A DNA stretch of 64,000 bases from positions 64,001 to 128,000 of the forward strand of contig CM000435.1 in NCBI GenBank assembly GCA_000165345.1, written 5' to 3'. Below the pieces are notes generated by a model. The model was not told the origin of the DNA, made no database searches, and saw nothing but the letters and a program-made list of their open reading frames with translations. Shown one piece after another: positions 5,239 through 58,269 of the stretch. The stretch's first letter is position 1, and every line of letters begins with the position of its first letter. Both the position numbers and the translations under genes were made by a program.

Positions 5239-8200
5239 ATGAAGAAAACAAGGTTAGATTGGTTGATTGCCTTTTTTCTATTTTTTGGGGTATCATTAAT
5301 AGAGGGTAAGAACGATGGAGGTATATTAGAATCAATCTTAGGAACAACTTTGAAGGAATTAGAGAAATCCATAATTGATACTCAGGATTTGGGAGAATCT
5401 AATGATACAAAGAAGTTGAACGAAACTCAAATATTAAGTGATGCATATGAAGCAAATATCAATAAAGATAGAGATAATGTGCCAGCAGCAACATCTTCAC
5501 TATCTAAAGCTTATAATCCATTAAAACTTGGAGAATTATTTATAGTACCATTAACTTCAGCAATAGCTGATAATTATTATCATAGTTATGGTCCAGATGG
5601 AAGAGATTTATTTTTACCAGAAAATGGTATCAGAAGAGGAATAAATCATTGGCTATCAGATGGAAATTCAATAAAGAAGGATATAGTTTACTTTACAGGA
5701 ATTCTTTCTGAGCCCAGAACAGTTTCAGGGATTGTAATTAACTGGGCTTCTTCTCCAGGAGAAGTTCGTATTGATGTTTCAAAAGATGGATATACCTTTG
5801 AGCAGGCAGTAGATTGGACTACAAATAGATTACCATCGAAAGAATTTGAGCAAAAGCTATATTTCAAAGAAAAGCCAATTCGTATTAGTAGAGTTAGAAT
5901 CGGGATGAGAAACCCAATTCACACCTTCTTCGGAATTAATTTCACAGGTTTGTTAGTTGTTGGTGCTCCAATTGTTCAATTAACAAGTGGTATAACATCA
6001 ATGACGGAAGAATTCTGTTGGCAAATTGAAAATGGTGATATTTATTCAAAGGGTGCAGAGCTCGTATTAGGAAGTTGTATTGAAGCTGTGGCATCTGGAG
6101 ATAGTAGAGAAATCTTTGAATTCAATAGTAAGGGTCAATTATTTAACCCAGTAAGTAAGTTGTGTGTACGACTTAAAGACAATGTTGTAGGTGGAGGAGC
6201 TCTGGTTTTGGATGATTGTCGTAAAGCTAGTGATGGAAGTGGATTATTCGAATTAATGCCAAACAATCAGCTCAGATTAGCTAGAGGTGGAAATCTATGC
6301 TTAACAAGTCCAGGAGATAAGCCAGGAGTCGCGAATGTTGCATTAAACTCAGCAGCCAGTTCCACAAGTGTGGTTAGAACAGGTATTGAGAATGGTCCAG
6401 CAATGGCTGTTGATGGAAAGGATACATCATATTGGTTGTCAGATTCTTTAACTCCTGGTAAAGATTCTGCAAATGTTAACTTTTTGATTGATACCGGTTC
6501 AGTTACAAAACTTAAAGATATCTTTATTGAGTGGAAATATCCTGCCATTGACTTTAATATTGATTTAAGTGAAAATGGAAAGGAATATCAAACCCAAGTT
6601 TCTGTGAATAATAATGGATTAATGTCAACCACTTATTCATTAGAAGGAAAGAAAGCAAGATATGTCAAAATTCAAATGACAATTCCAAGCCAAGATGAGA
6701 CAGGGAAATATGTGTATGGTATCAAACAGGTGAGAATATTCAGTAATACTATGAGAAGTGCTGTTGAGGATTGTAGTAGTGTTAAACAACATAATGATGG
6801 TAGAGACAAAATATTCCCACTCCCATATAATGGTGATAATTTTGCACCCGGATTATTGTTAAAGGCTCACGGAATTAGTGTAAAGAATAGATTAAATGAA
6901 TTACAAGAGCTTTCTGGTAAGGTAACTTCAATATTACCAAATTTGGATGCATGTAGAAAGACTTCTGATGGAAGAGATAACACATTAAAGATGCAGGCAA
7001 CCAAATTAGGATTTTTGTCAGAAAAATTGGAGAAATTAACTTCCGACTATAATCTCGAGTATAAGTTTACGAAGCCAGCTTTAGGAGGTTCCGAGTTATA
7101 TCCAGGGGAAGATTGTGTTGCTATTAAGAATGATAAGACTCAGGAAGCCATTAGTGGTTTTTATTATGTTAGACCATTCTGTTCAACCAAACCATTGAGA
7201 GTTTACTGTGATATGAACACTGGAAATACAATCTATCCAATGGAAATGAGTGTTCATTCTTCCAGAGCAGCTTCTTCAGCATGTGCAACTGTTGGATTAA
7301 AACCATTATTGTTAAGGGACAAAAAGGAATCTGTTGTAGGTATTAAGAAGATGTTGAATATGATGAATATTAATGATAATAGAAGAGTTATTCCTTTGAC
7401 TCACGACTTTGGTTGTGATAATCCTAAAGGATGCAATTCACAATTTACACAGTTAGGCAGTGGTGTTGAAGAATTTGTTGCTGCATCTCCTCAGGCAGCA
7501 GCTTCAAACTCTACATCTGGAGCACTTCCAGAACTGGTTCTTTGCAGTACAAATACCAATTTGAAGCATGAAAGCAATGCAATTTCCTTGTCTTGTGAAA
7601 GCAGATTCTCTGATATGAAGGTATTTAAATCATCTCCTCTCTTAACTTCAATTCTAGTCAAGTGTCCAACGTCATGCAATCCAGAAAATGGAGGAGTCGT
7701 AATAGGTTCTGATGTATACAGAGATGATAGCAGCATTTGTTTGGCAGCAATGCATGCTAATACTCTCAATAGATCAACTGGACTTGCTCAAATTACTCCA
7801 ATTGAAGGGTTGGAAAGCTATGGAGCATCCATTAAAAATGGTATTTCTAGTGTTGCTTATACTGGAAAGCGTTGGAAGAAGAGTTTCGTAACTTCCAAAT
7901 ACGAAGGATTATGTCCAAGTGATAGTAGTCTTTCAATGTTAATTTCATTTGTAGAATTGGAAAATAAAGGAAATGAAAATGTTAACATTACCAGCAACTA
8001 TACAATGCCTCAAGCAAAATCTCTTGGAATGGGAGTAGCTGTGGATACTTTTGAAGCAATCAATATGATGGAACGTTATATGGATAACATTGGTGGTATT
8101 ACTTATTCTCCAGCAATGAAAGAGTCTATTGGTGGTAGCCAAGTTTTGGTTTCAAAGGTTAGAAGTCAGTTAAAACCAACTCAAATTATGGATTACCATA

Positions 8201-12754: not shown

Positions 12755-13282
12755 TTACTTTTGGAAAGTAGTTGGTCTGGATGCAGTAAATGTTGAGCGT
12801 AAAGCCTTTGGAGCCATTGGTAACTTTCTGATAGCTGGGAACTTGAGCTTAGAGTTGAAGAACTGAGTAGTCTTTGGTCTCTTTGCAAGCTTAGCATCAA
12901 TTTGAGAAACACGGATAATCTGAATGCTGCTACGTTGAGCACGGTGTGATCCTGCAAGTTCCTCATACATTTGGCTAACAGCTCCAGTCTTGCTAATGTC
13001 TCTGTACTCCTTATACATATATACAACATTTGTACGGCTTCTGTATTGAAGCAAGATTGCAAAGTTCTTTACATATGTTGGTCTCTTCTCGAAAATACGA
13101 GTAACTGAGAGGATCTCACCATTGGCCTTCTTGACCTTATTCAATCTTGACATGAAGTAGAAGAATCTGCTCTTTGCTACAACTTCATTTGGAGCAAAAA
13201 TGCAAACTCTGAAAACTTTTGGATGTGGATTAAGCTCTGTTGGCTTTCCACGTCCAATAACCATATATTGGTTAACTTTCAT
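12755..13282 (-). CDS. RPL18A: 60S ribosomal protein L18a (eL20)
   Basis: MKVNQYMVIGRGKPTE...KVFRVCIFAPNEVVAKSRFFYF...KVKKANGEILSV...YRSRTNVVYMYKEYRD aligns along its length with eL20 (yeast RPL20 MAHFKEYQVIGRRLPTE...). The tracked ORF (12755..13375) extends 31 codons further upstream. By homology the start is the ATG at 13280-13282. Confidence 0.85.
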   Translation of the reverse strand: MKVNQYMVIGRGKPTELNPHPKVFRVCIFAPNEVVAKSRFFYFMSRLNKVKKANGEILSVTRIFEKRPTYVKNFAILLQYRSRTNVVYMYKEYRDISKTGAVSQMYEELAGSHRAQRSSIQIIRVSQIDAKLAKRPKTTQFFNSKLKFPAIRKLPMAPKALRSTFTASRPTTFQK

Positions 13283-14390
13283 TTGTAATGATGGATCTGG
13301 CATTGACTTCATCTTTTTTTTTTTTCTATTCAAACAATATAAATCTAAATAATTGGTTTTAAAATGTTTCTTCAAACCAAAGAACTTCTCTTTATTTACC
13401 TGAGTATTCTGGTAGTTCTGGTCTTGTAATTTCTAGAACTTAATTTTTTTTTTGTATATTCAATATGTATCTTATATACAAAAAAATTTAGACTTAATCT
13501 TGCCAATTATTTCCTTAAATAATACTTTAACACGTCTCAAAAATTTCCTTGTAATTCAATATTTTTAATAATATATTATTAACTTTATAACTTGTTGTTC
13601 ATAAATAATTCTATTGTATTTAATGGTTATTTCTTAACTATTATTTATTATTAAGGACCTTTGTCTCTCAGTCAATTACCGCCCAAAGACATTTGGCGCC
13701 ATGCCTCGAATGTTCATATTTATAATATATAAAAAGGCAACTCTTCAAATAATTAAAGGGATGAAATTACAAGTTTAAATTTCTTTCGTTTTTTCATTTT
13801 ATTCAATTTTTCACTTGATTATTCCTCATTGTTTACTTCTTTTGTGATATTATCTTTTGTTTTGTGCGCTTTATTCATTTTTGAAATGACACTTAATGGT
13901 AGAAGTAAGGTATAAAGAGGTACCATAGACATGAGAAACGTTATTTGTACTCTTATGTTTAGTTGATTAATATTTAGAAATAAATGCGGATTATGTTTGA
14001 TATTGCAACGAGATGAAAGTAAGGGTGGCTTTGATCCGTAATTTGCGCTAATTACTAGAATCGAGAATTACAATGGAGTGAACTTCAGTTAATAGTAAAT
14101 ACATCCGGCTCTACCTCCTATACCTTAGCTAATTAGATTTTTCGTTTAATTCATTTACTACAATACAAAGCTAAGTATTTTACGACCTATACACACAAAA
14201 TTGTTGTAACATTGCAAAAGTTCCTTGTCAATCTAGAAGATTAAATAACGTTCCGTAAAGTCCTTTCCTCTCTACTTCTCTCAAATATATATATGACTTA
14301 ATATAAACATTTCTTTAATAATTAACCTTATTTATTTTTTTTCGAAATTTCAAAAATTATTTAAAATACATGTTTCAAAATTCAATTCAG

Positions 14391-14403
14391 TTTTGGCGCC
14401 AAA
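14391..14403. promoter_or_regulatory. E2F-like motif TTTTGGCGCCAAA upstream of TM9SF (second copy TTTGGCGCCA at 13692-13701 in the same intergenic region)
   Basis: Exact palindromic GGCGCC core with T/A flanks, about 230 nt upstream of the ATG at 14628. Further instances at 32440-32455 (GTTTTGGCGCCAAAAC), 61446-61457 (TTTTGGCGCCAA) and 23764-23775 (imperfect). Confidence 0.6.
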
Positions 14404-16686: not shown

Positions 16687-18885
16687 TTATATTTCTCCTT
16701 GGTCTGTGTATACTATTTTCCCTGGAGGGTCATAATTGAATTTTGGCTCGATTTTCATAAGTTTTTTGAGAATTTCACATGCTCTTTCATCTTCAGGAGA
16801 CATATTCTCCATATTTTTGCGGGGGCTTTGTATCTGGTTCTTTTCATGAACTTGGTTTTTCTCTCCCAAGGTATCTAGATTTCCAGGTTGAGTAACTCCA
16901 TTATAAGGTTCTTCAATTTGATCATTTTGGCTCATCTTAGAAACTTTATTTTCATTATTTTCATCGAAGGCGTTATTTTCTTCTTTGAATTCCAAGTTAA
17001 GGGGGATCTTCTGATCAGTATTGGAGTTAGAAGTTTGCTCGATCTCATTCTTCAAATCTTCCTTTAGGGGTTCTAGAAGCTTTTCATGAGTAATAACTAT
17101 AATATTCTCTCCATTTTCGTGCTCTTGTGGCTTTAAGTGCAATTCCAATGTCGAAGCCTTCTCTTCACCACTTTGGTCGGAACGGACTGCAACATTTCCC
17201 GCCTGGTCATGTGGAAGTGCATGCAATTGCATGCTAAGGCTATCCTCGGATTTTGGTAGAATGGCGGGACAGTGTTCTGAAGGTGATTCGGGCATACAAT
17301 TAGAACCACATGGTTTTTTTCCGGAAATATTTTCAGGGGGGGTTTGTTGCGATGCGGAGAGGAGGGGGTTTTGATGCAAGGAGTTTATTTCAATATCTGG
17401 ATTCTGAGTCTGGTTCTCAACTTGTCTATGTGAGAATTCAGTATAGCTTGGCGAGATTGTTTGAATTTGACACTCCTCATGAGCTTCTTTGTGAGCCAAT
17501 TCTGCTGTTGTAGAAGTCTCTGTAGTTATTTGTACCTGCGTTTGATTTCTGGATTGCGTAGAGCTGGTAGAAAGTACAGTATTATTTTCATCATTTTGGT
17601 CTTCATCAGAATTACTAGAACGTTTGAGGTCTGAAATAATGATAAATGACTCAGATGTATTGTTTACACTAGAGTTAGAAAGATTTTCCGTAAATTCGTG
17701 ATCGTTTTCTGGTATTGTAGCCTCCCTTAAGCATTGAACTGGATTTATTGAAAAATCTGGGATGTTCTGGCGACCTGAATTGATCAAAGCCTGTTCAATA
17801 ATGCCTTGTTTTTCATCAAATGAAGATTCTTCTGACTGCTTAATTCTATAAAGATCAAAAGAGTAATCTTTAACAAGCAAATCTTCTCTAGGAATTTCAT
17901 CTAACTGAGGTTCTAGTTGCTGTTGATCATTGCCTTTGTTATAGCAACTATCTTTATCCTTATCTTCGTCCCCGTGTAAGAAATCTTTCGATATAACTTC
18001 ATGTTCTTCTTTTAAATTAAACTGGATCGTTTCTTTTCCATTATTATTTTGAATGATTACCTCTATATATGTAATGTTTCCATGGTGAGGCTTTGAAAAT
18101 GATACCTCTTTTTCTCTGAGAGGAATATCGTATAATGGACCTGCAGCAATATCACATCCTAGTAAACCCTTGCCTCCCCAGCCCGAATTAGGAGTTATAA
18201 ATATCTCCCTAGTAACTTCAGTCTCGGTGTTATATACAACAAGAGATAAAGGGACTTTATCATTTTTCTTAACAAATACTAAGAAGTCGTCAGTTGAATA
18301 GAATGGTCTCATTAATGTGCTGCTTGCGACTATGTAATCTTCATTTGATATCAGTCCAGCGGCCTGAGCAGGAGATGAATCTTGAATATTCACAACTCGA
18401 ATCCCTTTTGTAGATATTTCTTCCCAATGGACTCCAATACCGAGCCCAGATATTCGCTCATCGTAACTTAAGAATTGGTAAACTCTAAGGGAATTCAAAG
18501 GAGCATCAAATTCAACCATATTAGACTCAATCCCATCAACAAATGCATTCTTTCCTAGCCCATCCTTTTCAGATTCGACTGAGAATCTCCTATTAGGTAT
18601 ATTACCCTCATTATTTTCATTGTGTTTATGTGGATTAAGTATTATAGTTCTTATTCTGGTCGACAAAGAATTGTAGATATTTATTTTTACTTGATGCCTT
18701 CCAATCCCTTTCAATCTTTTCAAAAAAAAGTCATGAGAAGCATCTGAAACCTGAGTTAGAGGAACTCCATCAATCCCTACAATATAATCAAAGCTTCTTT
18801 CCAATTCTAAAAGTCTTCCAAGACTATTTTCTCCGTAATTGCATACGCGAAACCCTCCAAGTTGTTTGGTTTGCGCACCTCCCAT
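16687..18885 (-). CDS. Golgi reassembly stacking protein (GRASP) homolog, N-myristoylated, with long low-complexity C-terminal region
   Basis: 732 aa with ATG at 18883-18885. MGGAQ N-myristoylation start. Tandem GRASP PDZ-like domains (GIDGVPL..., GLGIGVHWEE..., REIFITPNSGWGGKGLLGCDIAAGPLYDIP matches the GRASP55/65 '[26 protein letters not shown]' block). Ser/Pro/Gln/Glu-rich tail. Confidence 0.75.
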   Translation of the reverse strand: MGGAQTKQLGGFRVCNYGENSLGRLLELERSFDYIVGIDGVPLTQVSDASHDFFLKRLKGIGRHQVKINIYNSLSTRIRTIILNPHKHNENNEGNIPNRRFSVESEKDGLGKNAFVDGIESNMVEFDAPLNSLRVYQFLSYDERISGLGIGVHWEEISTKGIRVVNIQDSSPAQAAGLISNEDYIVASSTLMRPFYSTDDFLVFVKKNDKVPLSLVVYNTETEVTREIFITPNSGWGGKGLLGCDIAAGPLYDIPLREKEVSFSKPHHGNITYIEVIIQNNNGKETIQFNLKEEHEVISKDFLHGDEDKDKDSCYNKGNDQQQLEPQLDEIPREDLLVKDYSFDLYRIKQSEESSFDEKQGIIEQALINSGRQNIPDFSINPVQCLREATIPENDHEFTENLSNSSVNNTSESFIIISDLKRSSNSDEDQNDENNTVLSTSSTQSRNQTQVQITTETSTTAELAHKEAHEECQIQTISPSYTEFSHRQVENQTQNPDIEINSLHQNPLLSASQQTPPENISGKKPCGSNCMPESPSEHCPAILPKSEDSLSMQLHALPHDQAGNVAVRSDQSGEEKASTLELHLKPQEHENGENIIVITHEKLLEPLKEDLKNEIEQTSNSNTDQKIPLNLEFKEENNAFDENNENKVSKMSQNDQIEEPYNGVTQPGNLDTLGEKNQVHEKNQIQSPRKNMENMSPEDERACEILKKLMKIEPKFNYDPPGKIVYTDQGEI

Positions 18886-19212
18886 TTATTATGTGAGAAT
18901 ACTGAAGGCTCTCAAATCTGGGAAACACTATAAGTAGATTTAACAATAATGATAATATTAAGAATGAGAAAGGTTCTAAAGATATTTTTTTTCAAGTGGG
19001 GAAAATAGGTGTCAACAAAATCAGTTCCTAAAGGAATATTTCAAAGCCAATACTCTAGGAACAATTTATTTGTCGTAACCTTAATCAGTCTAATCTCTAT
19101 ATTCCTCACCTTTATAACGCACTAAATCACCTCTTTTCTTACAAATCATTATTCCTTAATATAATTATTAGTGAGCACTAAATGGCGGCACAATTCTAGC
19201 GCCACTAACATG

Positions 19213-20337
19213 TTAGATTTTTAATTTCTCAAAATCAATTTTGGGAGCGACTAATTTTGTAATAGAAGCTCTTTTACCTGTGAGAGCATTTCCAAGAGGG
19301 ACTACAACCTCTGCATCCTCAATGAAGTCATTTTTATCAGGGACTAGATTATTTTTCGATATATCAGTGTCCAATAGATTGGAGTTTGGATCATCGGAGT
19401 TGGAAATACCAGAATTAACAATAATTTTGGCGGGATTTTTGTCGAGAGTATTATTATTGGCTTGTTTTCTTCTCTCTTTAATAATTTTGGTGACTTTTTT
19501 ATGGACTTCAATCTCGCGAATACAAACCATCATAGCATCCATGAACTGTGTAGGGAGGTTTTCTATAATTGTAGTTTGCCCCGATTTGTTTCTCCTTGTG
19601 AATATAATTTTAGATCTACCATAGTCCCAATACCCATCCCTAAGGTCTTTTGCAAATATTATTCCTTTCTTTTCTGATTTTTCACCTCTACTAACTTTAA
19701 GGTCACTCTTTGTGTAGTAGGATAGAAATGCAATGGGGTCAGTTCCATCCATGATGAAAAATCTTACTTTATTTGGAGAAATATGTGAATCCCAATTTCC
19801 TACTAGTTTTACAGCAACACAACCTCTTTTTCCTATATCCCAAGCTGTGTGGTAGCCCATTATAATATCTTCTGGTATATACTCTCCTTTGGGAATCCAT
19901 GCTGTGCTTCTAATTTCATTCATCTCTTCTGGACTTAATGCGGCAATTTCTTCTCCTCTTTGAATTTGCTCAATTTCGTCATGCAAAAAATCGGGATTGT
20001 CATCTTCATTTGCTTTATGTCTCATCCTCCTATTTCTTATTCTCTGTCTAAATCTAACATCACCTAAATTAGAATTATCCGTACTACCTTTATTTTGGAA
20101 TATTTTAAGTTTATCTTGAATAATGCTATCAAACTTATTTGAATTTGAGGTTAGAATTGCATTAGGATCTAACTTCATATCATCATCTTCGTCAACAGAA
20201 AAGTCATCATCATCTCCGTAAAAGTCATTCCAATCATAATCTCCACTATAATATCCTTGTACATTTGCTAAAATTTTATTAACAGAGGCAGATTCTGAAG
20301 CATGGGCTGAATTACTATTATCCAAAGTATTCTGCAT
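19213..20337 (-). CDS. Hypothetical protein, acidic N-terminus plus conserved-looking C-terminal globular domain (function unassigned)
   Basis: The tracked ORF 19213..20343 begins at a TTG. The first ATG is at 20335-20337 (MQNTLDNS...). Acidic DDDDFSVDEDDD stretch, then a domain AWIPKGEYIPEDIIMGYHTAWDIGKRGCVAVKLVGNWD...VRFFIMDGTDPIAFL...GYWDYGRSKIIF that I cannot assign confidently (PH/EVH1-like at best). Confidence 0.5.
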   Translation of the reverse strand: MQNTLDNSNSAHASESASVNKILANVQGYYSGDYDWNDFYGDDDDFSVDEDDDMKLDPNAILTSNSNKFDSIIQDKLKIFQNKGSTDNSNLGDVRFRQRIRNRRMRHKANEDDNPDFLHDEIEQIQRGEEIAALSPEEMNEIRSTAWIPKGEYIPEDIIMGYHTAWDIGKRGCVAVKLVGNWDSHISPNKVRFFIMDGTDPIAFLSYYTKSDLKVSRGEKSEKKGIIFAKDLRDGYWDYGRSKIIFTRRNKSGQTTIIENLPTQFMDAMMVCIREIEVHKKVTKIIKERRKQANNNTLDKNPAKIIVNSGISNSDDPNSNLLDTDISKNNLVPDKNDFIEDAEVVVPLGNALTGKRASITKLVAPKIDFEKLKI

Positions 20338-20540
20338 CTTCAAAATATATTCAAATCTCTAAAATCTATAGAGACTTTAATTCTCTTTAAATTCCACTCC
20401 TATATCTTATTTTCTTCAGTTATTTCATTTAGATTCATTATTTTTAATTAGATTGCTTGTAATAGAAATTCCAAAAAATGTGTGCCAGCCCGCCAAAACC
20501 AAACCATTATAAATACAACATAAATAGTATAAACTGCATT

Positions 20541-31709: not shown

Positions 31710-32499
31710 TGAATATTAGATTTACTCCACGCCTGAAGATATAATAATTCTGTTACTAATATCATCATCAAAAAGGATGAGAAGAATCTAAGATTTCCAT
31801 TTTTTTTTTCTAAAAATGTATGTGTTGTTGTATTTAAATGCGTTAAATACACCATTTTCATTTTTTTTTCTAAATAAAATAAAATAAAATTTATTATTTG
31901 GTGGAATGGCATTTCAATATTTTATTTATTTATCGCTTTCACTAAAATTCAAAATCTAGGATAATAAAGGGATTTGATGGTGGAATTACGTGTAATAATT
32001 ATTTCAATGAGTACTACATTTTTTCTTTCATAACTTAAAGTAAGTTGGAGTAATTTGGCACATCCAAAGTCTTAAATAAAGCTATGAAATACACCATCAA
32101 AATTACATATTTAATTTTTACTTTAATGATAAAAAAAAATAATAATAAATAATAGTGTGAAATTTCTCTCAAAACTAAAAGACTACCAATAATAATCCAA
32201 ATTTTAGTCATTAGTTTAAAAAAAAATCTTTCACCATTTCGCTAGTTTGATTTTATTGGGCTTGATTTTCATGCTTAATTTCTATTTAAATCATTATCAT
32301 ATTCGTTAATCATCTCTTGTTGTTTTATATTTAAATATATTCGAATTCAAAGTTTAATATAGATGGAACAGATTAATTGATTCTTCATTAAATTCTGCAT
32401 GCATTCTTACATGCAAAATGTAATTGAATTAATAGGTCAAGTTTTGGCGCCAAAACATTTTTTTATTCTTTTTTTCTTTAATAAAAAAAAAAAATAAAA

Positions 32500-41551: not shown

Positions 41552-42360
41552 CTTCAAAAAAGTGATAAGAAGAAGAAAAAAAAAAAAAAGAAGAAATAAA
41601 AGAAAAAGAATAAGTGGAGGAAGAGGAATATGAATAAGAAGAAGATGAAGAAGATGAAGAAGAAGAAGAAATATAAATCTCTAACTCACATTAATTAAAA
41701 ATATAAAATGATAATTTTCCATTCAAATCCCTAAAAACTCTTTTTCACTTTTAATATGTATCCAAAAATATTAGATTTATATCTATTTTAAATACTAGTA
41801 ATCTGGATATCAAATATTATATATATTTTCACCATTAAATAAAATATATTTAAATATTCATTAATATATCATTAATATACCAAACTTTTATTTAATATCT
41901 AAAAAATAATTTTTTACTTTTTTTTTTTTTTTTATAATATAATTTTTTTTTTATATAATACATTACCGGTATACAAGAAATAAATTTATGATTAATTGTG
42001 CAGCAGATTACCGCCAAACACGTGTTATATTGATTATCTCATTTTAAAAACAAATAATATAAATAATGAAAAAAACGAATAAAAGGATTAAATGAGTAAA
42101 GTGAATACAATATTTATAGAAAACAATAATATTTTAAATAATTGTATTTGAATGAAAAATTGTTAAACTCTTGTTTGGATTTCAGTTACTTTAAATTATT
42201 AAGGTGGAAAAAAAACAAAGAAAAAAAGTTAAGTTAAAAAAAAAAAAAAATAATCTATTAAAACAATTTTAAAGATCCAAGATAAAATAAAATTATTAAT
42301 TAATAATACAATATTTAATTTATTTGATTTCTAATTTCTTATTTCAATAAAAAAAAAATT

Positions 42361-43394: not shown

Positions 43395-44852
43395 TTAATA
43401 ATCATTCTTTATATTATCTATCATTGCTTTAGTTTTCCTATACTCTCTGCTCTTTTTGGATCCAGAATTACCTTTAGAACTATGATGTTTGTCATATTGA
43501 CTCACAAAAGACTTTCTTATTCTGTCTTTATCAAATTGTGTTGTCTTATTCTTCCTAGGAAGCCATAAATTATTTATTCTTTCATTAATAGCTCTTGCCT
43601 TAAACTCATCATACTCTTGTTTGTCAATTATTTCATCGTATTCTTCCTCTTCTTGATGTTCGTTATCGCTATTGTCTTGGTCTTGGTTTCGACAATTGTA
43701 TTCATCATCATCATCATCATCATCTTCTTCTTCTTCTTCTTCTTCTTCTTCTTCTTCTTCTTCCTCTTCCTCTTCCTCTTCCTCTTGAGTTGAATCGTCC
43801 TCTTCATGTGAGATTTCACTATTATCATGTAATTCTGATCCATCTAAGTTATTCTTTCCGTTATTTTGTGAAATTATTGTATTCAAATAATCAAGCCTAT
43901 TCATATCCCTATCAATCTTTCCAATATTAATGATCTTATTTGAGCTATGAACATTATCACTAGTAAATACAATAACATCCTCAAATTTTGGATACTCCAT
44001 GACCTGAATTCCAAATCTCTTTCTAAAAAGCTCAATAATACAGTTAACATCTCTATTAAAATACATCTCAGCATTAATATGGTCAGTATTAACAATCTGG
44101 GGAAAATCAATCAATGTTATATTTTCTTTGGAATCTATTAGTAAATTAAACTCATTAAAATCTCCATGTATAAGTCCACAATCTGCTAATCTTATAATCA
44201 TTTTCATTAGTCTTTCCAATGCTCCATATGGATCATCTAAATGTCGAATTGAATTAAGTGGTACTGCATCTATTAATTCCATAACTATAGCATGACGATT
44301 CCAATCAATTGGTTCTGGAACCTTAATTTCACCCTCATTAAATCCATTTTCATACAATGCTTTTAAACAACTGTATTCCTTCAAAGCTGCTAATCTAGAT
44401 AAATATAGCCAAGATGAAGTCTTTCTATTTCTTAAATAATCTCTTGTATTTTTAACATTTCTAAAAGATACTCTTCCTAATCTATGTAACTTTAAACATA
44501 TTAATTTCCCATTCTCATCAGCTGCTATATGTATATCACTCTCTTTACCTACTCCTATTCTTGCTCCTACTGATGATATTATTCCTCTCTTATTTAAAGC
44601 TCTTAAAGCTAAGAAATCATATCCTAAATACGATAATTTATACCCTTCATATATTTTACTTTCTCTAGATACTAATTTATTTCTTAATAGATTTTGCAAT
44701 AATTGATAACTCCCTGTTCTTCTTAAATTACTAATCGATTCTATAAGCTGTGGAGATACATACTCATGGTTTCTCATACCCATTTCTACTGCTGTCAATA
44801 TTCTCCATTCATCTTTACTGATGAATCTCATATTACTCACATCCAACTTCAT
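43395..44852 (-). CDS. RIO2: RIO2 atypical Ser/Thr kinase with poly-Glu/Asp C-terminal region
   Basis: 485 aa with ATG at 44850-44852. N-terminal RIO2 winged helix MRFISKDEWRILTAVEMGMRNHEYVSPQLI. RIO kinase core (GVGKESDIH..., LIHGDFNEFNLLI, IDFPQ). The acidic tract is encoded by (GAA/GAG)n at about 43690-43800. Confidence 0.85.
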   Translation of the reverse strand: MKLDVSNMRFISKDEWRILTAVEMGMRNHEYVSPQLIESISNLRRTGSYQLLQNLLRNKLVSRESKIYEGYKLSYLGYDFLALRALNKRGIISSVGARIGVGKESDIHIAADENGKLICLKLHRLGRVSFRNVKNTRDYLRNRKTSSWLYLSRLAALKEYSCLKALYENGFNEGEIKVPEPIDWNRHAIVMELIDAVPLNSIRHLDDPYGALERLMKMIIRLADCGLIHGDFNEFNLLIDSKENITLIDFPQIVNTDHINAEMYFNRDVNCIIELFRKRFGIQVMEYPKFEDVIVFTSDNVHSSNKIINIGKIDRDMNRLDYLNTIISQNNGKNNLDGSELHDNSEISHEEDDSTQEEEEEEEEEEEEEEEEEEEEDDDDDDDEYNCRNQDQDNSDNEHQEEEEYDEIIDKQEYDEFKARAINERINNLWLPRKNKTTQFDKDRIRKSFVSQYDKHHSSKGNSGSKKSREYRKTKAMIDNIKNDY

Positions 44853-45186
44853 TTTTGTATTTTATGTAAGTCTTCTCCTATAATTTCTTTTTCTTAATAA
44901 TCAACAAAGACAAAAACACTTATATTTATTTATAAAATATATTTTTAACCTTGATTATTATTTTTTTTTGACACGTAATTTTAGATTTATTTGATTGAAA
45001 AGATGAAGAATTTTTCTTTCCACAATTTCAACTCTTCAGTTATCTTTTACAAACTAAATTGGTTGCAATCAATCAGTGATTTAGTAATAATTTCTTAAAT
45101 TTACCACTTAACATAAACCTTCTTGCTATTTTTCTTTTTTTGAAATTTCTTCTTAACTATTATCGGTACCATAATGCATCACGTGG

Positions 45187-45210
45187 ATGGCGGCAGAATT
45201 CTGCCGCCAT
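45187..45210. promoter_or_regulatory. Perfect 24-bp palindrome ATGGCGGCAGAATTCTGCCGCCAT (paired GGCGGCA/E2F-like half-sites) in the divergent RIO2/CDP-DAG-synthase promoter
   Basis: The sequence equals its own reverse complement. Related imperfect copy ATGGCGGCACAATTCTAGCGCCAC at 19182-19205, upstream of GRASP. Confidence 0.6.
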
Positions 45211-45332: not shown

Positions 45333-45365
<33 letters not shown>

Positions 45366-45701
45366 TATAAATATTATTTATATATATTTATATATATATA
45401 TATATTTATAACATTTATGTTTACATATACATAAATATCTCATTTACATCTGATTAAATTGGAATACAGAGCTAAAAAAACGCAAAAAAGATAAACTTGA
45501 ATTACAACTTATGGTCTTATAGAATTGGAAAATTACTATAATCACTTTAAGAATATAAGAGTACTTTTCTATAAGTACTAAAGCTTTTCAAATTTTTATT
45601 ATTTTTGGTATTTGATTATCAGTAAATTAAGATAAACTATTGATATTTAACCCAACCCCCTTATCCTTTTTTTTTAAATTATTAAAAATAAAGTTTTTGG
45701 A

Positions 45702-47054
45702 ATGAAAAATTCAAGATATATAAGAAGTAATTCAATTTTTGATGATACAGAACATGAAACAGAGTCTGATAATTTTTTTAGTGAAGTTGAATTGAGAAGA
45801 AGAAATGGAAATAGAAAAGAATCATCTGAAAAGAATGGACATAAGGAAGGAAACAAAAATGGAATAATTGAAAACAGTAAAATAACAGGAAACCATTCAT
45901 CTACAAATAATAGCGGAGATCTTAATTGGGTAACTAGAACTATTTGGACAATAATCTTATTATCATCATTCCTAGTAATACTTGCAGCTGGACATACTTA
46001 TTCTGCAATGCTTGTACTTATTTTGATTTCAGCAGTATATCAAGAAGTTAATTCACTTAAAAGAAGTGCTGAAGAAGATAAACGTCTTCCATTCTTTTAT
46101 ACTTTACGTTGGTATTGGTTAGGAGTAACATTATTTTCAACAGGAAAATTATGGTGGGTTCCTTTAATTGAAAAATATAGAAGAAATTATTATTTATTAT
46201 ATTTAATAGTTTATTACCATTCTTTGATAAGTTATGTTGGAGCTTTATTTGGATTTATTGCTTTTATATTATCTCTAAGAAATTATACACTTAGATATCA
46301 ATTTTCTCAATTTGGAATAATGATTTTAAGCCTTTTACTTGTGGTAACTCAATCAGTTTTTATGATTGCTAATACTTATAGAGGCCTAATTTGGTTCATA
46401 CTTCCTTCATGTCTTGTTATATGTAATGATATATTTGCTTATATTGTTGGTAAAATCTTTGGGAAAACTCGACTCTTCAGACTTTCTCCAAAGAAAACGG
46501 TTGAAGGATTTATTGGAGCTTCTATTATCACTATTTTTGCTGCAATTATTCTTGGTAATGTTCTTTCCAAAAGTCAGATATTTATTTGTCCTCAAAATGA
46601 ATTACTTGAAAAACCTTTTTCAATGTGGTATGAATTAAAATGTGATCCTAATCCTGTATTTATTCAAAAACCATATAATATTCCACCATTTTTACATTTT
46701 ATTTTTGGTAAAGAACCTTTTCTAATTCCAGATTCACAATTCCATGCCATTGCTATTGGTATTTTTGCTGCTTTTGTTGCTCCTTTTGGTGGATTCTTTG
46801 CATCTGGTCTTAAAAGAGCTTTAAGAATTAAAGATTTTGGTTCTGCTATACCTGGCCATGGTGGAATCACTGATAGATTTGATTGTCAAATTCTTATTGG
46901 TCTGTTTACATATTTATATATTCGTGCATTTATCTTTACAAATCCCAAATCAGTATCTTTAGATATTGTCATAAAATTAGCTAAAATGCTACCAGAACCA
47001 GAAATTCAACATTTAATTTCTGTACTGTCTAGCCATATATCCAGTCAACAATAA
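45702..47054 (+). CDS. CDS1: Phosphatidate cytidylyltransferase (CDP-diacylglycerol synthase)
   Basis: 450 aa. Polytopic. CTP_transf_1 signature SPKKTVEGFIGASI and C-terminal GHGGITDRFDCQ, matching GHGGxxDRxD. Confidence 0.85.
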   Translation: MKNSRYIRSNSIFDDTEHETESDNFFSEVELRRRNGNRKESSEKNGHKEGNKNGIIENSKITGNHSSTNNSGDLNWVTRTIWTIILLSSFLVILAAGHTYSAMLVLILISAVYQEVNSLKRSAEEDKRLPFFYTLRWYWLGVTLFSTGKLWWVPLIEKYRRNYYLLYLIVYYHSLISYVGALFGFIAFILSLRNYTLRYQFSQFGIMILSLLLVVTQSVFMIANTYRGLIWFILPSCLVICNDIFAYIVGKIFGKTRLFRLSPKKTVEGFIGASIITIFAAIILGNVLSKSQIFICPQNELLEKPFSMWYELKCDPNPVFIQKPYNIPPFLHFIFGKEPFLIPDSQFHAIAIGIFAAFVAPFGGFFASGLKRALRIKDFGSAIPGHGGITDRFDCQILIGLFTYLYIRAFIFTNPKSVSLDIVIKLAKMLPEPEIQHLISVLSSHISSQQ

Positions 47055-51836: not shown

Positions 51837-52450
51837 ACCAGTAATTAAAACCATGGCCTTGAATGTTATTTTATCTATTGGAAAATTATATTTACTCGTT
51901 AAGCTTGTTTTAAATAACATTCTCTATACATAAAATAATCCAATAAAATTTGGAAAGCAAATAAAAGTTTTGTATTGAAAACTTTTTTTTTGGTTTGATA
52001 ATAAAATTTAACTTGAGAATTTTGGATTCAACTTGTGCTTTTTGGGTTTTTGTATATTTAATTTGAATTTATCTTTTTGTAGAAAACTCCTAAATTAATA
52101 ACATTAGTAAACTTATTTGATTTAGCTTTGTAAAGTATTCTTTTATTTTCATAAGACTCTTTCCATATAAAGATGAATTTTTAAATAGAAAAAAATAAAC
52201 AAAACTCTAAATTTCTAATACTTGATTAATTCCTAATGAATAAAATGGTTAAAAAAGTCAACACAGACTAATGCATTGCGCGCCTTCCATGTGGACGCGC
52301 ATGCAAAAACTTTTTAGAGCACATGCGGAAACGCCAGTAAAAAAAAAGGAAAATCAGTACCGGTGTAAACGTGTGAAAACAAATAAACTAAAAACTTGAT
52401 TGCATGCAAAAAATTCCAATAAAATTATGAATTTGGAGCATTTAAATTAT

Positions 52451-58253: not shown

Positions 58254-58269
58254 TTGGCGCCGGCGCCAA
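58254..58269. promoter_or_regulatory. Double E2F-like palindrome TTGGCGCCGGCGCCAA in the divergent RPAP2-like/RPC11 promoter
   Basis: Two overlapping GGCGCC cores form a 16-bp perfect palindrome 48 nt upstream of the RPC11 ATG. Confidence 0.6.

Follow-up and report, generated by a model that had tools for sequence, protein, structure and literature searches.

The DNA between the RIO2 kinase and CDP-diacylglycerol synthase genes

We analysed a 64-kb stretch of Cryptosporidium parvum chromosome 7, hereafter referred to as the window. It has a GC content of 30%, and the GRASP and CDP-DAG synthase proteins that it encodes match C. parvum Iowa II/ATCC entries exactly. In its second half, the genes encoding the RIO2 kinase and the CDP-diacylglycerol (CDP-DAG) synthase diverge from an 849-bp intergenic region that holds the 24-bp element ATGGCGGCAGAATTCTGCCGCCAT (Table 1), placing it in a divergent promoter as the original prediction had proposed. 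The RIO2 ATG is 334 bp away from the element, and the ATG of the CDP-DAG synthase 491 bp. In agreement with the same prediction, the element is exactly its own reverse complement (24 of 24 positions). It had further been described as two half-sites around an AATTCT core. The halves, GGCGGCA and TGCCGCC, are indeed present, but the centre of the palindrome is really GAATTC, AATTCT being merely the string held in common with a related element upstream of the GRASP gene.

Table 1. Features of the window and sequences of the paired sites in Cryptosporidium species
Feature	Position in window	Strand	Sequence	Remarks
24-bp palindrome	45187-45210	.	ATGGCGGCAGAATTCTGCCGCCAT	contains dyad GGCGG-N10-CCGCC
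Left GC core	45189-45193	+	GGCGG	extended form GGCGGCAGAA, reverse complement TTCTGCCGCC; invariant in 7 species
Right GC core	45204-45208	-	CCGCC	inverted copy of left core; CCGC invariant in 7 species, last base C in 6/7
Spacer	45194-45203	.	CAGAATTCTG	10 bp; length kept, sequence not
Conserved block	45174-45182	-	GTGATGCAT	includes TGCAT ApiAP2 motif; in 6 species
Conserved block	45159-45170	-	GGTACCGATAAT	second most conserved 12-mer, score 0.94 (mean 0.31)
Conserved block	44977-44988	-	AAATCTAAAATT	most conserved 12-mer, score 0.96; ~125 bp upstream of RIO2 ATG
RIO2 kinase gene, probably cgd7_440	43395-44852	-		Pfam Rio2_N and RIO1; gene number interpolated
CDP-diacylglycerol synthase gene, cgd7_450	45702-47054	+		Pfam CTP_transf_1; exact C. 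parvum protein match; ID from supplementary gene list
Twin of the palindrome	19182-19205	.	ATGGCGGCACAATTCTAGCGCCAC	contains dyad GGCGG-N10-GCGCC; pair kept in C. ubiquitum, C. canis, C. felis, C. bovis
GRASP gene, probably cgd7_340	16687-18885	-		Pfam GRASP55_65; exact C. parvum protein match; gene number interpolated
Third conserved pair	13679-13700	.	CCGCCcaaagacatttGGCGCC	upstream of ribosomal protein L18a; kept in C. ubiquitum, C. canis, C. bovis
Ribosomal protein L18a gene, cgd7_320	12755-13375	-		ID from supplementary gene list
RIO2 dyad, C. parvum			GGCGG CAGAATTCTG CCGCC	
RIO2 dyad, C. meleagridis			GGCGG CAAAACTTTC CCGCC	
RIO2 dyad, chipmunk genotype I			GGCGG GAATGTTGGC CCGCC	
RIO2 dyad, C. 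ubiquitum			GGCGG GAAAATCGAC CCGCC	
RIO2 dyad, L006			GGCGG CGAGATTTGC CCGCC	
RIO2 dyad, C. canis			GGCGG GCAAAATAGC CCGCG	
RIO2 dyad, C. felis			GGCGG CTACTACTTG CCGCC	
GRASP pair (GRASP sense), C. parvum			GGCGC-TAGAATTGTG-CCGCC	N10
GRASP pair (GRASP sense), C. ubiquitum			GGCGC-CACGCAGGTG-CCGCC	left core GGCGCC
GRASP pair (GRASP sense), C. canis			GGCGC-CAAACTGTG-CCGCC	left core GGCGCC, N9
GRASP pair (GRASP sense), C. felis			GGCGCC-AAATGGTT-GGCGCC	N8
GRASP pair (GRASP sense), C. bovis			AGCGCCAAAA-CAGCG-ATTTGGCGCT	N5; inverted TTTGGCGC sites

With 14 G/C in a window of 30% GC, ATGGCGGCAGAATTCTGCCGCCAT is the sole long GC-rich perfect palindrome that we found; the remaining palindromes of at least 18 bp are pure A/T, save one 40-bp AT-rich repeat with 6 G/C. 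About 5e-12 exact copies of ATGGCGGCAGAATTCTGCCGCCAT are expected per 64 kb, and in first-order Markov simulations, 2 of 200 runs produced a palindrome no shorter than 16 bp and with 10 or more G/C. Searching for further matches with up to three mismatches returned none in the 64-kb window and none in 100 dinucleotide-preserving shuffles. The heptamer GGCGGCA/TGCCGCC is confined to ATGGCGGCAGAATTCTGCCGCCAT and its GRASP twin, and the more general pattern GGCG[GC]-N10-[GC]CGCC was seen twice in the window, as compared to an expectation of 0.0014 to 0.01. A weaker match to the palindrome (18/24, positions 6001-6024) lies inside a 1674-aa ORF, lacks the GC cores and was put down to chance. The other GC-containing palindromes of the window, TTGGCGCCGGCGCCAA, GTTTTGGCGCCAAAAC and GCATGCAATTGCATGC, are likewise motifs of the transcription-factor type, TTGGCGCCGGCGCCAA consisting of two overlapping canonical E2F sites and GCATGCAATTGCATGC of two AP2-type GCATGC sites within the GRASP ORF (58254-58269 and 17219-17234, respectively).

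Conservation of the cores and of their spacing at the RIO2 locus

Syntenic RIO2/synthase regions of eight other species were located via the RIO2 orthologues: C. meleagridis, chipmunk genotype I, C. ubiquitum, the Logan-assembly species L006, C. canis, C. felis, C. xiaoi and C. serpentis. The C. felis dyad was placed by pattern search (MAFFT misplaced C. felis in the seven-species alignment). In this comparison of orthologous promoters, which had been proposed along with the original prediction, seven intestinal-clade species keep GGCGG-N10-CCGC(C/G) at RIO2, with nine core positions invariant and a gap of always 10 bp, free of indels. The spacers, by contrast, have seven different sequences in the seven species, all 10 bp long. 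Between C. parvum and C. meleagridis, 4 of the 10 spacer positions differ, the whole intergenic region being 85.5% identical. What the spacers share is a G or C at both ends (positions 1 and 10), an A-rich left and a T-rich right part. Taken as a whole, the RIO2/synthase intergenic alignment shows a mean column identity of 46% with many indels, and TA microsatellite tracts in the same region (45333-45405) differ in length between species, showing that bases are freely gained and lost around the dyad as opposed to its fixed 10-bp gap.

The palindrome as such is not maintained. The C. meleagridis counterpart of the 24-mer, GGCGGCAAAACTTTCCCGCC, is not a perfect palindrome, and the AATTCT of both C. 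parvum copies is absent from the other sampled species at either locus, so that this share of the likeness between palindrome and twin is probably coincidental. According to these data, with invariant cores and gap but a diverging spacer, selection acts on the two GC cores and their spacing and not on the 24-bp symmetry. The perfect symmetry, absent in all six other sampled species, is most simply seen as a by-product rather than as a selected feature. Length and perfection of the element had been taken to suggest something other than chance; the expected counts, the shuffles and the conservation indeed mark it as non-random, but its perfection does not qualify as the selected trait.

Outside these seven species, the site takes other forms. 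In C. xiaoi, one canonical TTGGCGCCAAA stands in the dyad's place, 334 bp from the RIO2 ATG; the intergenic region of C. serpentis is shorter and contains TTAAGCGCC-TATATA-CCGCTTAA. The distance from the site to the RIO2 ATG amounts to 325-373 bp in eight species, and that to the synthase ATG to 344-641 bp.

In a six-species profile of the RIO2/synthase region, the best-conserved 12-mers are AAATCTAAAATT, GGTACCGATAAT and CACGTGATGCAT (45174-45185), with the dyad cores coming next. GGTACCGATAAT and GTGATGCAT adjoin the palindrome and exceed it in conservation, and the GGTACCG of GGTACCGATAAT is kept even in the gastric species C. serpentis. Dyad, GTGATGCAT and GGTACCGATAAT together form one conserved block of ~55 bp (45159-45210). 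Because single-base indels separate its conserved sub-blocks, this block is not coding, ruling out a small exon or upstream ORF. The TGCAT contained in GTGATGCAT is a published ApiAP2 binding motif (PMC4117751), and the more distant AAATCTAAAATT is possibly the RIO2 core promoter or a transcription start element. CACGTG occurs four times in the window, and three of these copies (2702-2713, 42011-42024, 45180-45193) directly adjoin a GGCGG-type core; a composite CACGTG + GGCGG motif was nevertheless rejected, the adjacency not being kept in orthologous promoters.

Related pairs upstream of GRASP and ribosomal protein L18a

The degenerate twin that had been noted upstream of GRASP, ATGGCGGCACAATTCTAGCGCCAC, matches ATGGCGGCAGAATTCTGCCGCCAT at 20 of 24 positions, the number of matches of at least 20/24 expected in 64 kb being 1.5e-5. 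It is located 296 bp upstream of the GRASP ATG, as well as 7 bp beyond the stop codon that ends ORF 19213-20343 (cgd7_350 according to a supplementary gene list). Four syntenic loci were compared via the GRASP orthologues of C. ubiquitum, C. canis, C. felis and C. bovis. Across these species, the halves of the pair alternate among GGCGC, GGCGCC and CCGCC, the partner of the twin being GGCGCC in three species, and the pair remains 281-310 bp from the GRASP ATG in four species. The fact that the pair is kept while its cores swap between the GGCGG type and the canonical GGCGCC type indicates that both types belong to one motif family, and is the strongest computational argument that we can offer to this effect.

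In four species, the GRASP pair starts 6-10 bp past the stop of the same-strand upstream gene cgd7_350 (window 19206-19212) and thus probably lies within the cgd7_350 3' UTR. Such a position brings to mind the E2F motifs that C. parvum polycistrons are reported to carry between their genes. Closer to GRASP, C. parvum, C. ubiquitum and C. canis share a conserved G-box, AAGTGGGGAAAA (18994-19005), which corresponds to a published ApiAP2 motif.

A third conserved pair, CCGCCcaaagacatttGGCGCC, is found upstream of the ribosomal protein L18a gene and is followed by a conserved GAGAGACAAAGG block. All three pairs are intergenic and lie 280-400 bp from a start codon.

Relationship to the E2F-like motifs of C. 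parvum

The classical E2F consensus is TTTSSCGC. Both C. parvum halves, TGCCGCC, fit SSCGC with SS = GC and carry an E2F-like GC core, as defined by [C/G]GCGC[G/C] or GGCGGG or, equivalently, by SSCGC. Read outwards, each half (TTCTGCCGCC) corresponds to TTTSSCGC with one mismatch in the T-tract (TCT for TTT). Orthologous halves come closer: GGCGGG or CCCGCC is present in C. ubiquitum, chipmunk genotype I, C. canis and the right half of C. meleagridis, and perfect E2F halves are formed by both halves of C. meleagridis (CTTTCCCGCC) and by the left half of C. ubiquitum (GGCGGGAAAA); several halves are perfect TTTCCCGCC or GGCGGGAAA sites. Counting against the E2F reading, the T/A tracts beside the cores are only weakly kept in several species, with up to three mismatches, as in the C. 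ubiquitum right half ...TCGAC-CCGCC. Importantly, the sites interchange with canonical TGGCGCCA sites at orthologous positions, namely TTGGCGCCAAA of C. xiaoi at RIO2, and GGCGCC-N8-GGCGCC of C. felis and TTTGGCGC of C. bovis at GRASP. The fixed cores and gap, the C. xiaoi site and the GGCGCC halves at GRASP all support the earlier idea that the palindrome is a spaced dimeric variant of the GGCGCC, E2F-like family.

Bankier (2003) and Mullapudi (2007) are said to have noted E2F-like upstream motifs in C. parvum early on. The E2F-like motif 3 (DTTGSCGCCH) and motif 4 (TTTGGCGGGAAV, core GGCGGG) were subsequently described as the most abundant upstream motifs of C. parvum, standing before 2,379 genes; the functions enriched with E2F-like motifs include ribonucleoprotein assembly, Golgi vesicle transport and ribosomal proteins, and motif orientation and spacing were found variable and left unexplored (Oberstaller 2013, PMC3734150). 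The L18a gene itself belongs to ribosomal cluster 4 (PMC3734150). The motif family has been tied to co-expression clusters (PMC3734150) and, in a 2025 ATAC-seq preprint, to open promoters: E2F motifs dominate the open-chromatin peaks of sporozoites. As a point against the paired reading, the motifs are described there as occurring singly within a peak, with no word on pairs. A 2025 review states that the roles of Cryptosporidium E2F motifs lack functional validation and that E2F/DP binding has never been shown experimentally.

The dyad shares with motifs 3 and 4 the GC cores GGCGG[G/C] and GGCGCC, to a varying degree the A/T-rich flanks, and the location upstream of or between genes; moreover, orthologous positions hold the canonical forms, and the neighbouring genes fall into functional classes enriched in E2F motifs. 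The element is thus a new instance of the known E2F-like motif family. It differs in that the published motifs are single sites, whereas here two inverted sites keep a fixed spacing across the genus, and in that the C. parvum dyad cores read GGCGGC as compared to the GGCGGG of the published consensus. The fixed-spacing pairing, seen at three conserved loci in 64 kb, adds a modest new detail.

A proposed pair of E2F-like sites as a probable promoter element

Judging from the sequence, we propose that the palindrome is probably a cis-regulatory protein-binding element of the shared RIO2/CDP-DAG synthase promoter, composed of two head-to-head E2F-like sites, each carrying a putative E2F/DP heterodimer. 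In this arrangement, GGCGG(S) is followed by an A-rich tract, and a T-rich tract by (S)CCGCC, such that the T/A-tracts abut in the centre and the GC cores stand 15 bp apart, measured from centre to centre. As suggested by the motif similarity, each half most likely binds one E2F/DP heterodimer. Since the site of E2F/DP spans ~12 bp (PMC3734150), two complexes should fit side by side on the dyad. The conserved spacing suggests that a fixed geometry is needed, which may allow the two E2F/DP complexes to bind next to each other, possibly cooperatively, and we infer that the dyad activates transcription. Together with the TGCAT-containing block and the GGTACCGATAAT block, the dyad would constitute a ~55-bp promoter module at a nearly constant distance from the RIO2 start codon, and the GRASP twin and the L18a pair are further cases of the same paired architecture.

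The dyad might instead be read as one symmetric GGCGG-N10-CCGCC site by another factor, either a homodimer or a GC-box-type C2H2 zinc-finger protein, in place of two E2F/DP complexes. All seven species have strictly GGCGG and never GGCGC as RIO2 cores, with exact spacing; such strictness exceeds that of the usual E2F consensus and might be the mark of another factor. CGG-N10-CCG moreover resembles the sites of fungal zinc-cluster proteins. The transcription factors listed for C. parvum include 27 C2H2 proteins (Table 2 in PMC3734150), but no Zn2Cys6 family (PMC3734150). Several observations are hard to reconcile with a dedicated GGCGG-reading factor: C. xiaoi has one canonical GGCGCC site where the other species have the dyad, the cores of the GRASP pair vary among GGCGC, GGCGCC and CCGCC, with CGC and not CGG in the left half, and several halves are perfect E2F sites. 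We accordingly discarded the fungal-type zinc-cluster site, which fits the RIO2 dyad but neither the GRASP left half nor the single site of C. xiaoi nor the published factor list, and we regard a different symmetric reader of any kind as unlikely.

A perfect palindrome can also form a hairpin, and the original prediction had raised the possibility of a selected cruciform-capable element. The selected property could then be a secondary structure, that is, a DNA cruciform or a transcript hairpin located in a 5' UTR, an lncRNA or the cgd7_350 3' UTR. The predicted hairpin is strong in C. parvum (-12.5 kcal/mol, z = -6.5) and in C. canis (-13.7), and a GC stem of 5-6 bp can form in every species. 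However, the other five species have stems of only these 5-6 bp with loops of 8-10 nt (-5.7 to -9 kcal/mol), and the GRASP pair keeps a mismatch, GGCGC opposite CCGCC, in three species; hairpins at the GRASP locus reach -4 to -7 kcal/mol, with z-scores of -1.8, -2.0 and +0.15. Complementary changes across the dyad flanks are in weak excess (8 cells vs 3.8 expected, reached by 2 of 500 shuffles), an excess that a hairpin would yield, but that is within the range that relatedness alone can give and that a symmetric protein site with preferences for G/C and A/T-tracts would yield as well. The four central stem pairs are invariant and therefore hold no evidence of covariation. In a pair count over the seven dyads, 2 to 4 of the seven sequences are unpaired at each position outside the cores, and spacer positions 1 and 10, although always G/C, are complementary in just five of seven species. 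Pairing potential maintained by compensatory changes was thus not found across the seven dyads, in which just the invariant 5-bp cores always pair. In addition, C. xiaoi has a single site where the dyad should be, and an Rfam scan of the RIO2/synthase intergenic region gave no significant family match, the sole hit being a ylbH leader (E = 0.4) that scored 17.6 bits where the gathering cut-off is 50. With a weaker hairpin in five of six other species and a non-complementary position kept at GRASP, selection for a cruciform is not borne out, and secondary structure is a minor rival that we hold to be very improbable.

Less credible still is a role outside transcription, as a replication origin, a boundary or an element that positions nucleosomes. 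In a genome of 30% GC, nucleosomes could be kept out or put in place by GC-rich islands, and the element sits mid-way in a long intergenic region, far from both ATGs. Against this, it is specific bases and not GC content that are conserved, published work links the motif family to co-expression clusters and to open promoters, and nothing points to an origin. Finally, a chance palindrome devoid of function, a reading favoured solely by the fact that none of the six other sampled species has the perfect symmetry, can be set aside as next to impossible, considering the expected counts for the 24-mer, the twin and the dyad pattern (the last at most 0.01), and is already refuted by the conservation in seven species at the RIO2 locus and five at the GRASP locus.

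Comparison with other E2F arrangements

Assuming that the dyad is a pair of E2F-like sites, it can be compared with arrangements known from other systems. To our knowledge, Cryptosporidium is the only apicomplexan retaining E2F/DP; its E2F proteins include cgd1_1570 and cgd6_1430, and its DP proteins cpbgf_7003650 and cpbgf_8001850. In the adenovirus E2 enhancer, the E2F sites are inverted, with T-tracts pointing outwards, and are further apart than 15 bp; their spacing and orientation matter for the cooperative occupancy induced by E4 orf6/7. Animal and viral paired E2F sites resemble the dyad in that two close E2F sites act as one unit. Compared to adenovirus E2, the T/A-tracts of the dyad abut in the centre and its cores are 15 bp apart. 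We know of no bridging protein in Cryptosporidium. Rb-family partners have not been found in the parasite (PMC3734150), and the viral reference case consists of two typical E2F sites (PMC12731185).

The single palindromic E2F site of the DHFR type, TTTGGCGCCAAA (window 32441-32456, 14394-14401), has dyad symmetry and the same core family in common with the element and interconverts with the pair in evolution, as seen for C. xiaoi at RIO2 and C. felis at GRASP. Such a site is one overlapping site for one heterodimer, whereas the dyad comprises two cores with a 10-bp gap. In the CDE/CHR element of the DREAM complex, GGCGG-N4-TTYGAA, the CDE core GGCGG is read by E2F4/DP. The dyad shares this core and has a second GC core as its partner element. 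Since TTYGAA occurs in none of the seven spacers, nor is it conserved 4 bp from either core, we rejected the CDE/CHR reading.

Spacing of E2F-like cores in the window

Extending the proposal beyond the three loci, head-to-head E2F-like cores at a fixed distance of ~15 bp might form a distinct, genus-wide promoter element apart from the single E2F site, which would attract either a cooperating pair of E2F/DP heterodimers or a dimeric factor dedicated to GGCGG and would mark housekeeping genes (RIO2, L18a, GRASP) at ~300-350 bp from their start codons. We put this forward as speculation and consider it doubtful. If the fixed-spacing pair proved to be a genome-wide class, it would provide the first promoter-architecture rule for the parasite; otherwise, it is an ordinary case of a known motif. 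In either event, it is known for three compact loci which bases are needed (two 5-bp cores), at what spacing (10 bp), and which are free to vary (the spacer), which offers a ready design for binding and promoter-editing work.

In the window, 49 of the 85 GCGC, GCGG or CCGC cores lie outside long ORFs, that is, in 30% of its length. The distances between GC cores in the non-coding DNA of the window are 14, 14, 17, 17 and 19 bp, as compared to a scatter of 23-36 bp, the pairs being too few for an informative histogram. Conserved single E2F-like sites exist as well, upstream of EMP70 and in the divergent promoter of a CDK-like kinase and an SNF2 helicase (~42000-42030); in the latter promoter, the single E2F-like site reads TTTGGCGG(G)AA, and CTGCTGCACA comes after it in several species. 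A further close pair of GC cores, TGCGCGCCttccatgtggaCGCGCATGC at 52278-52300, has GCATGC-type motifs on its flanks.
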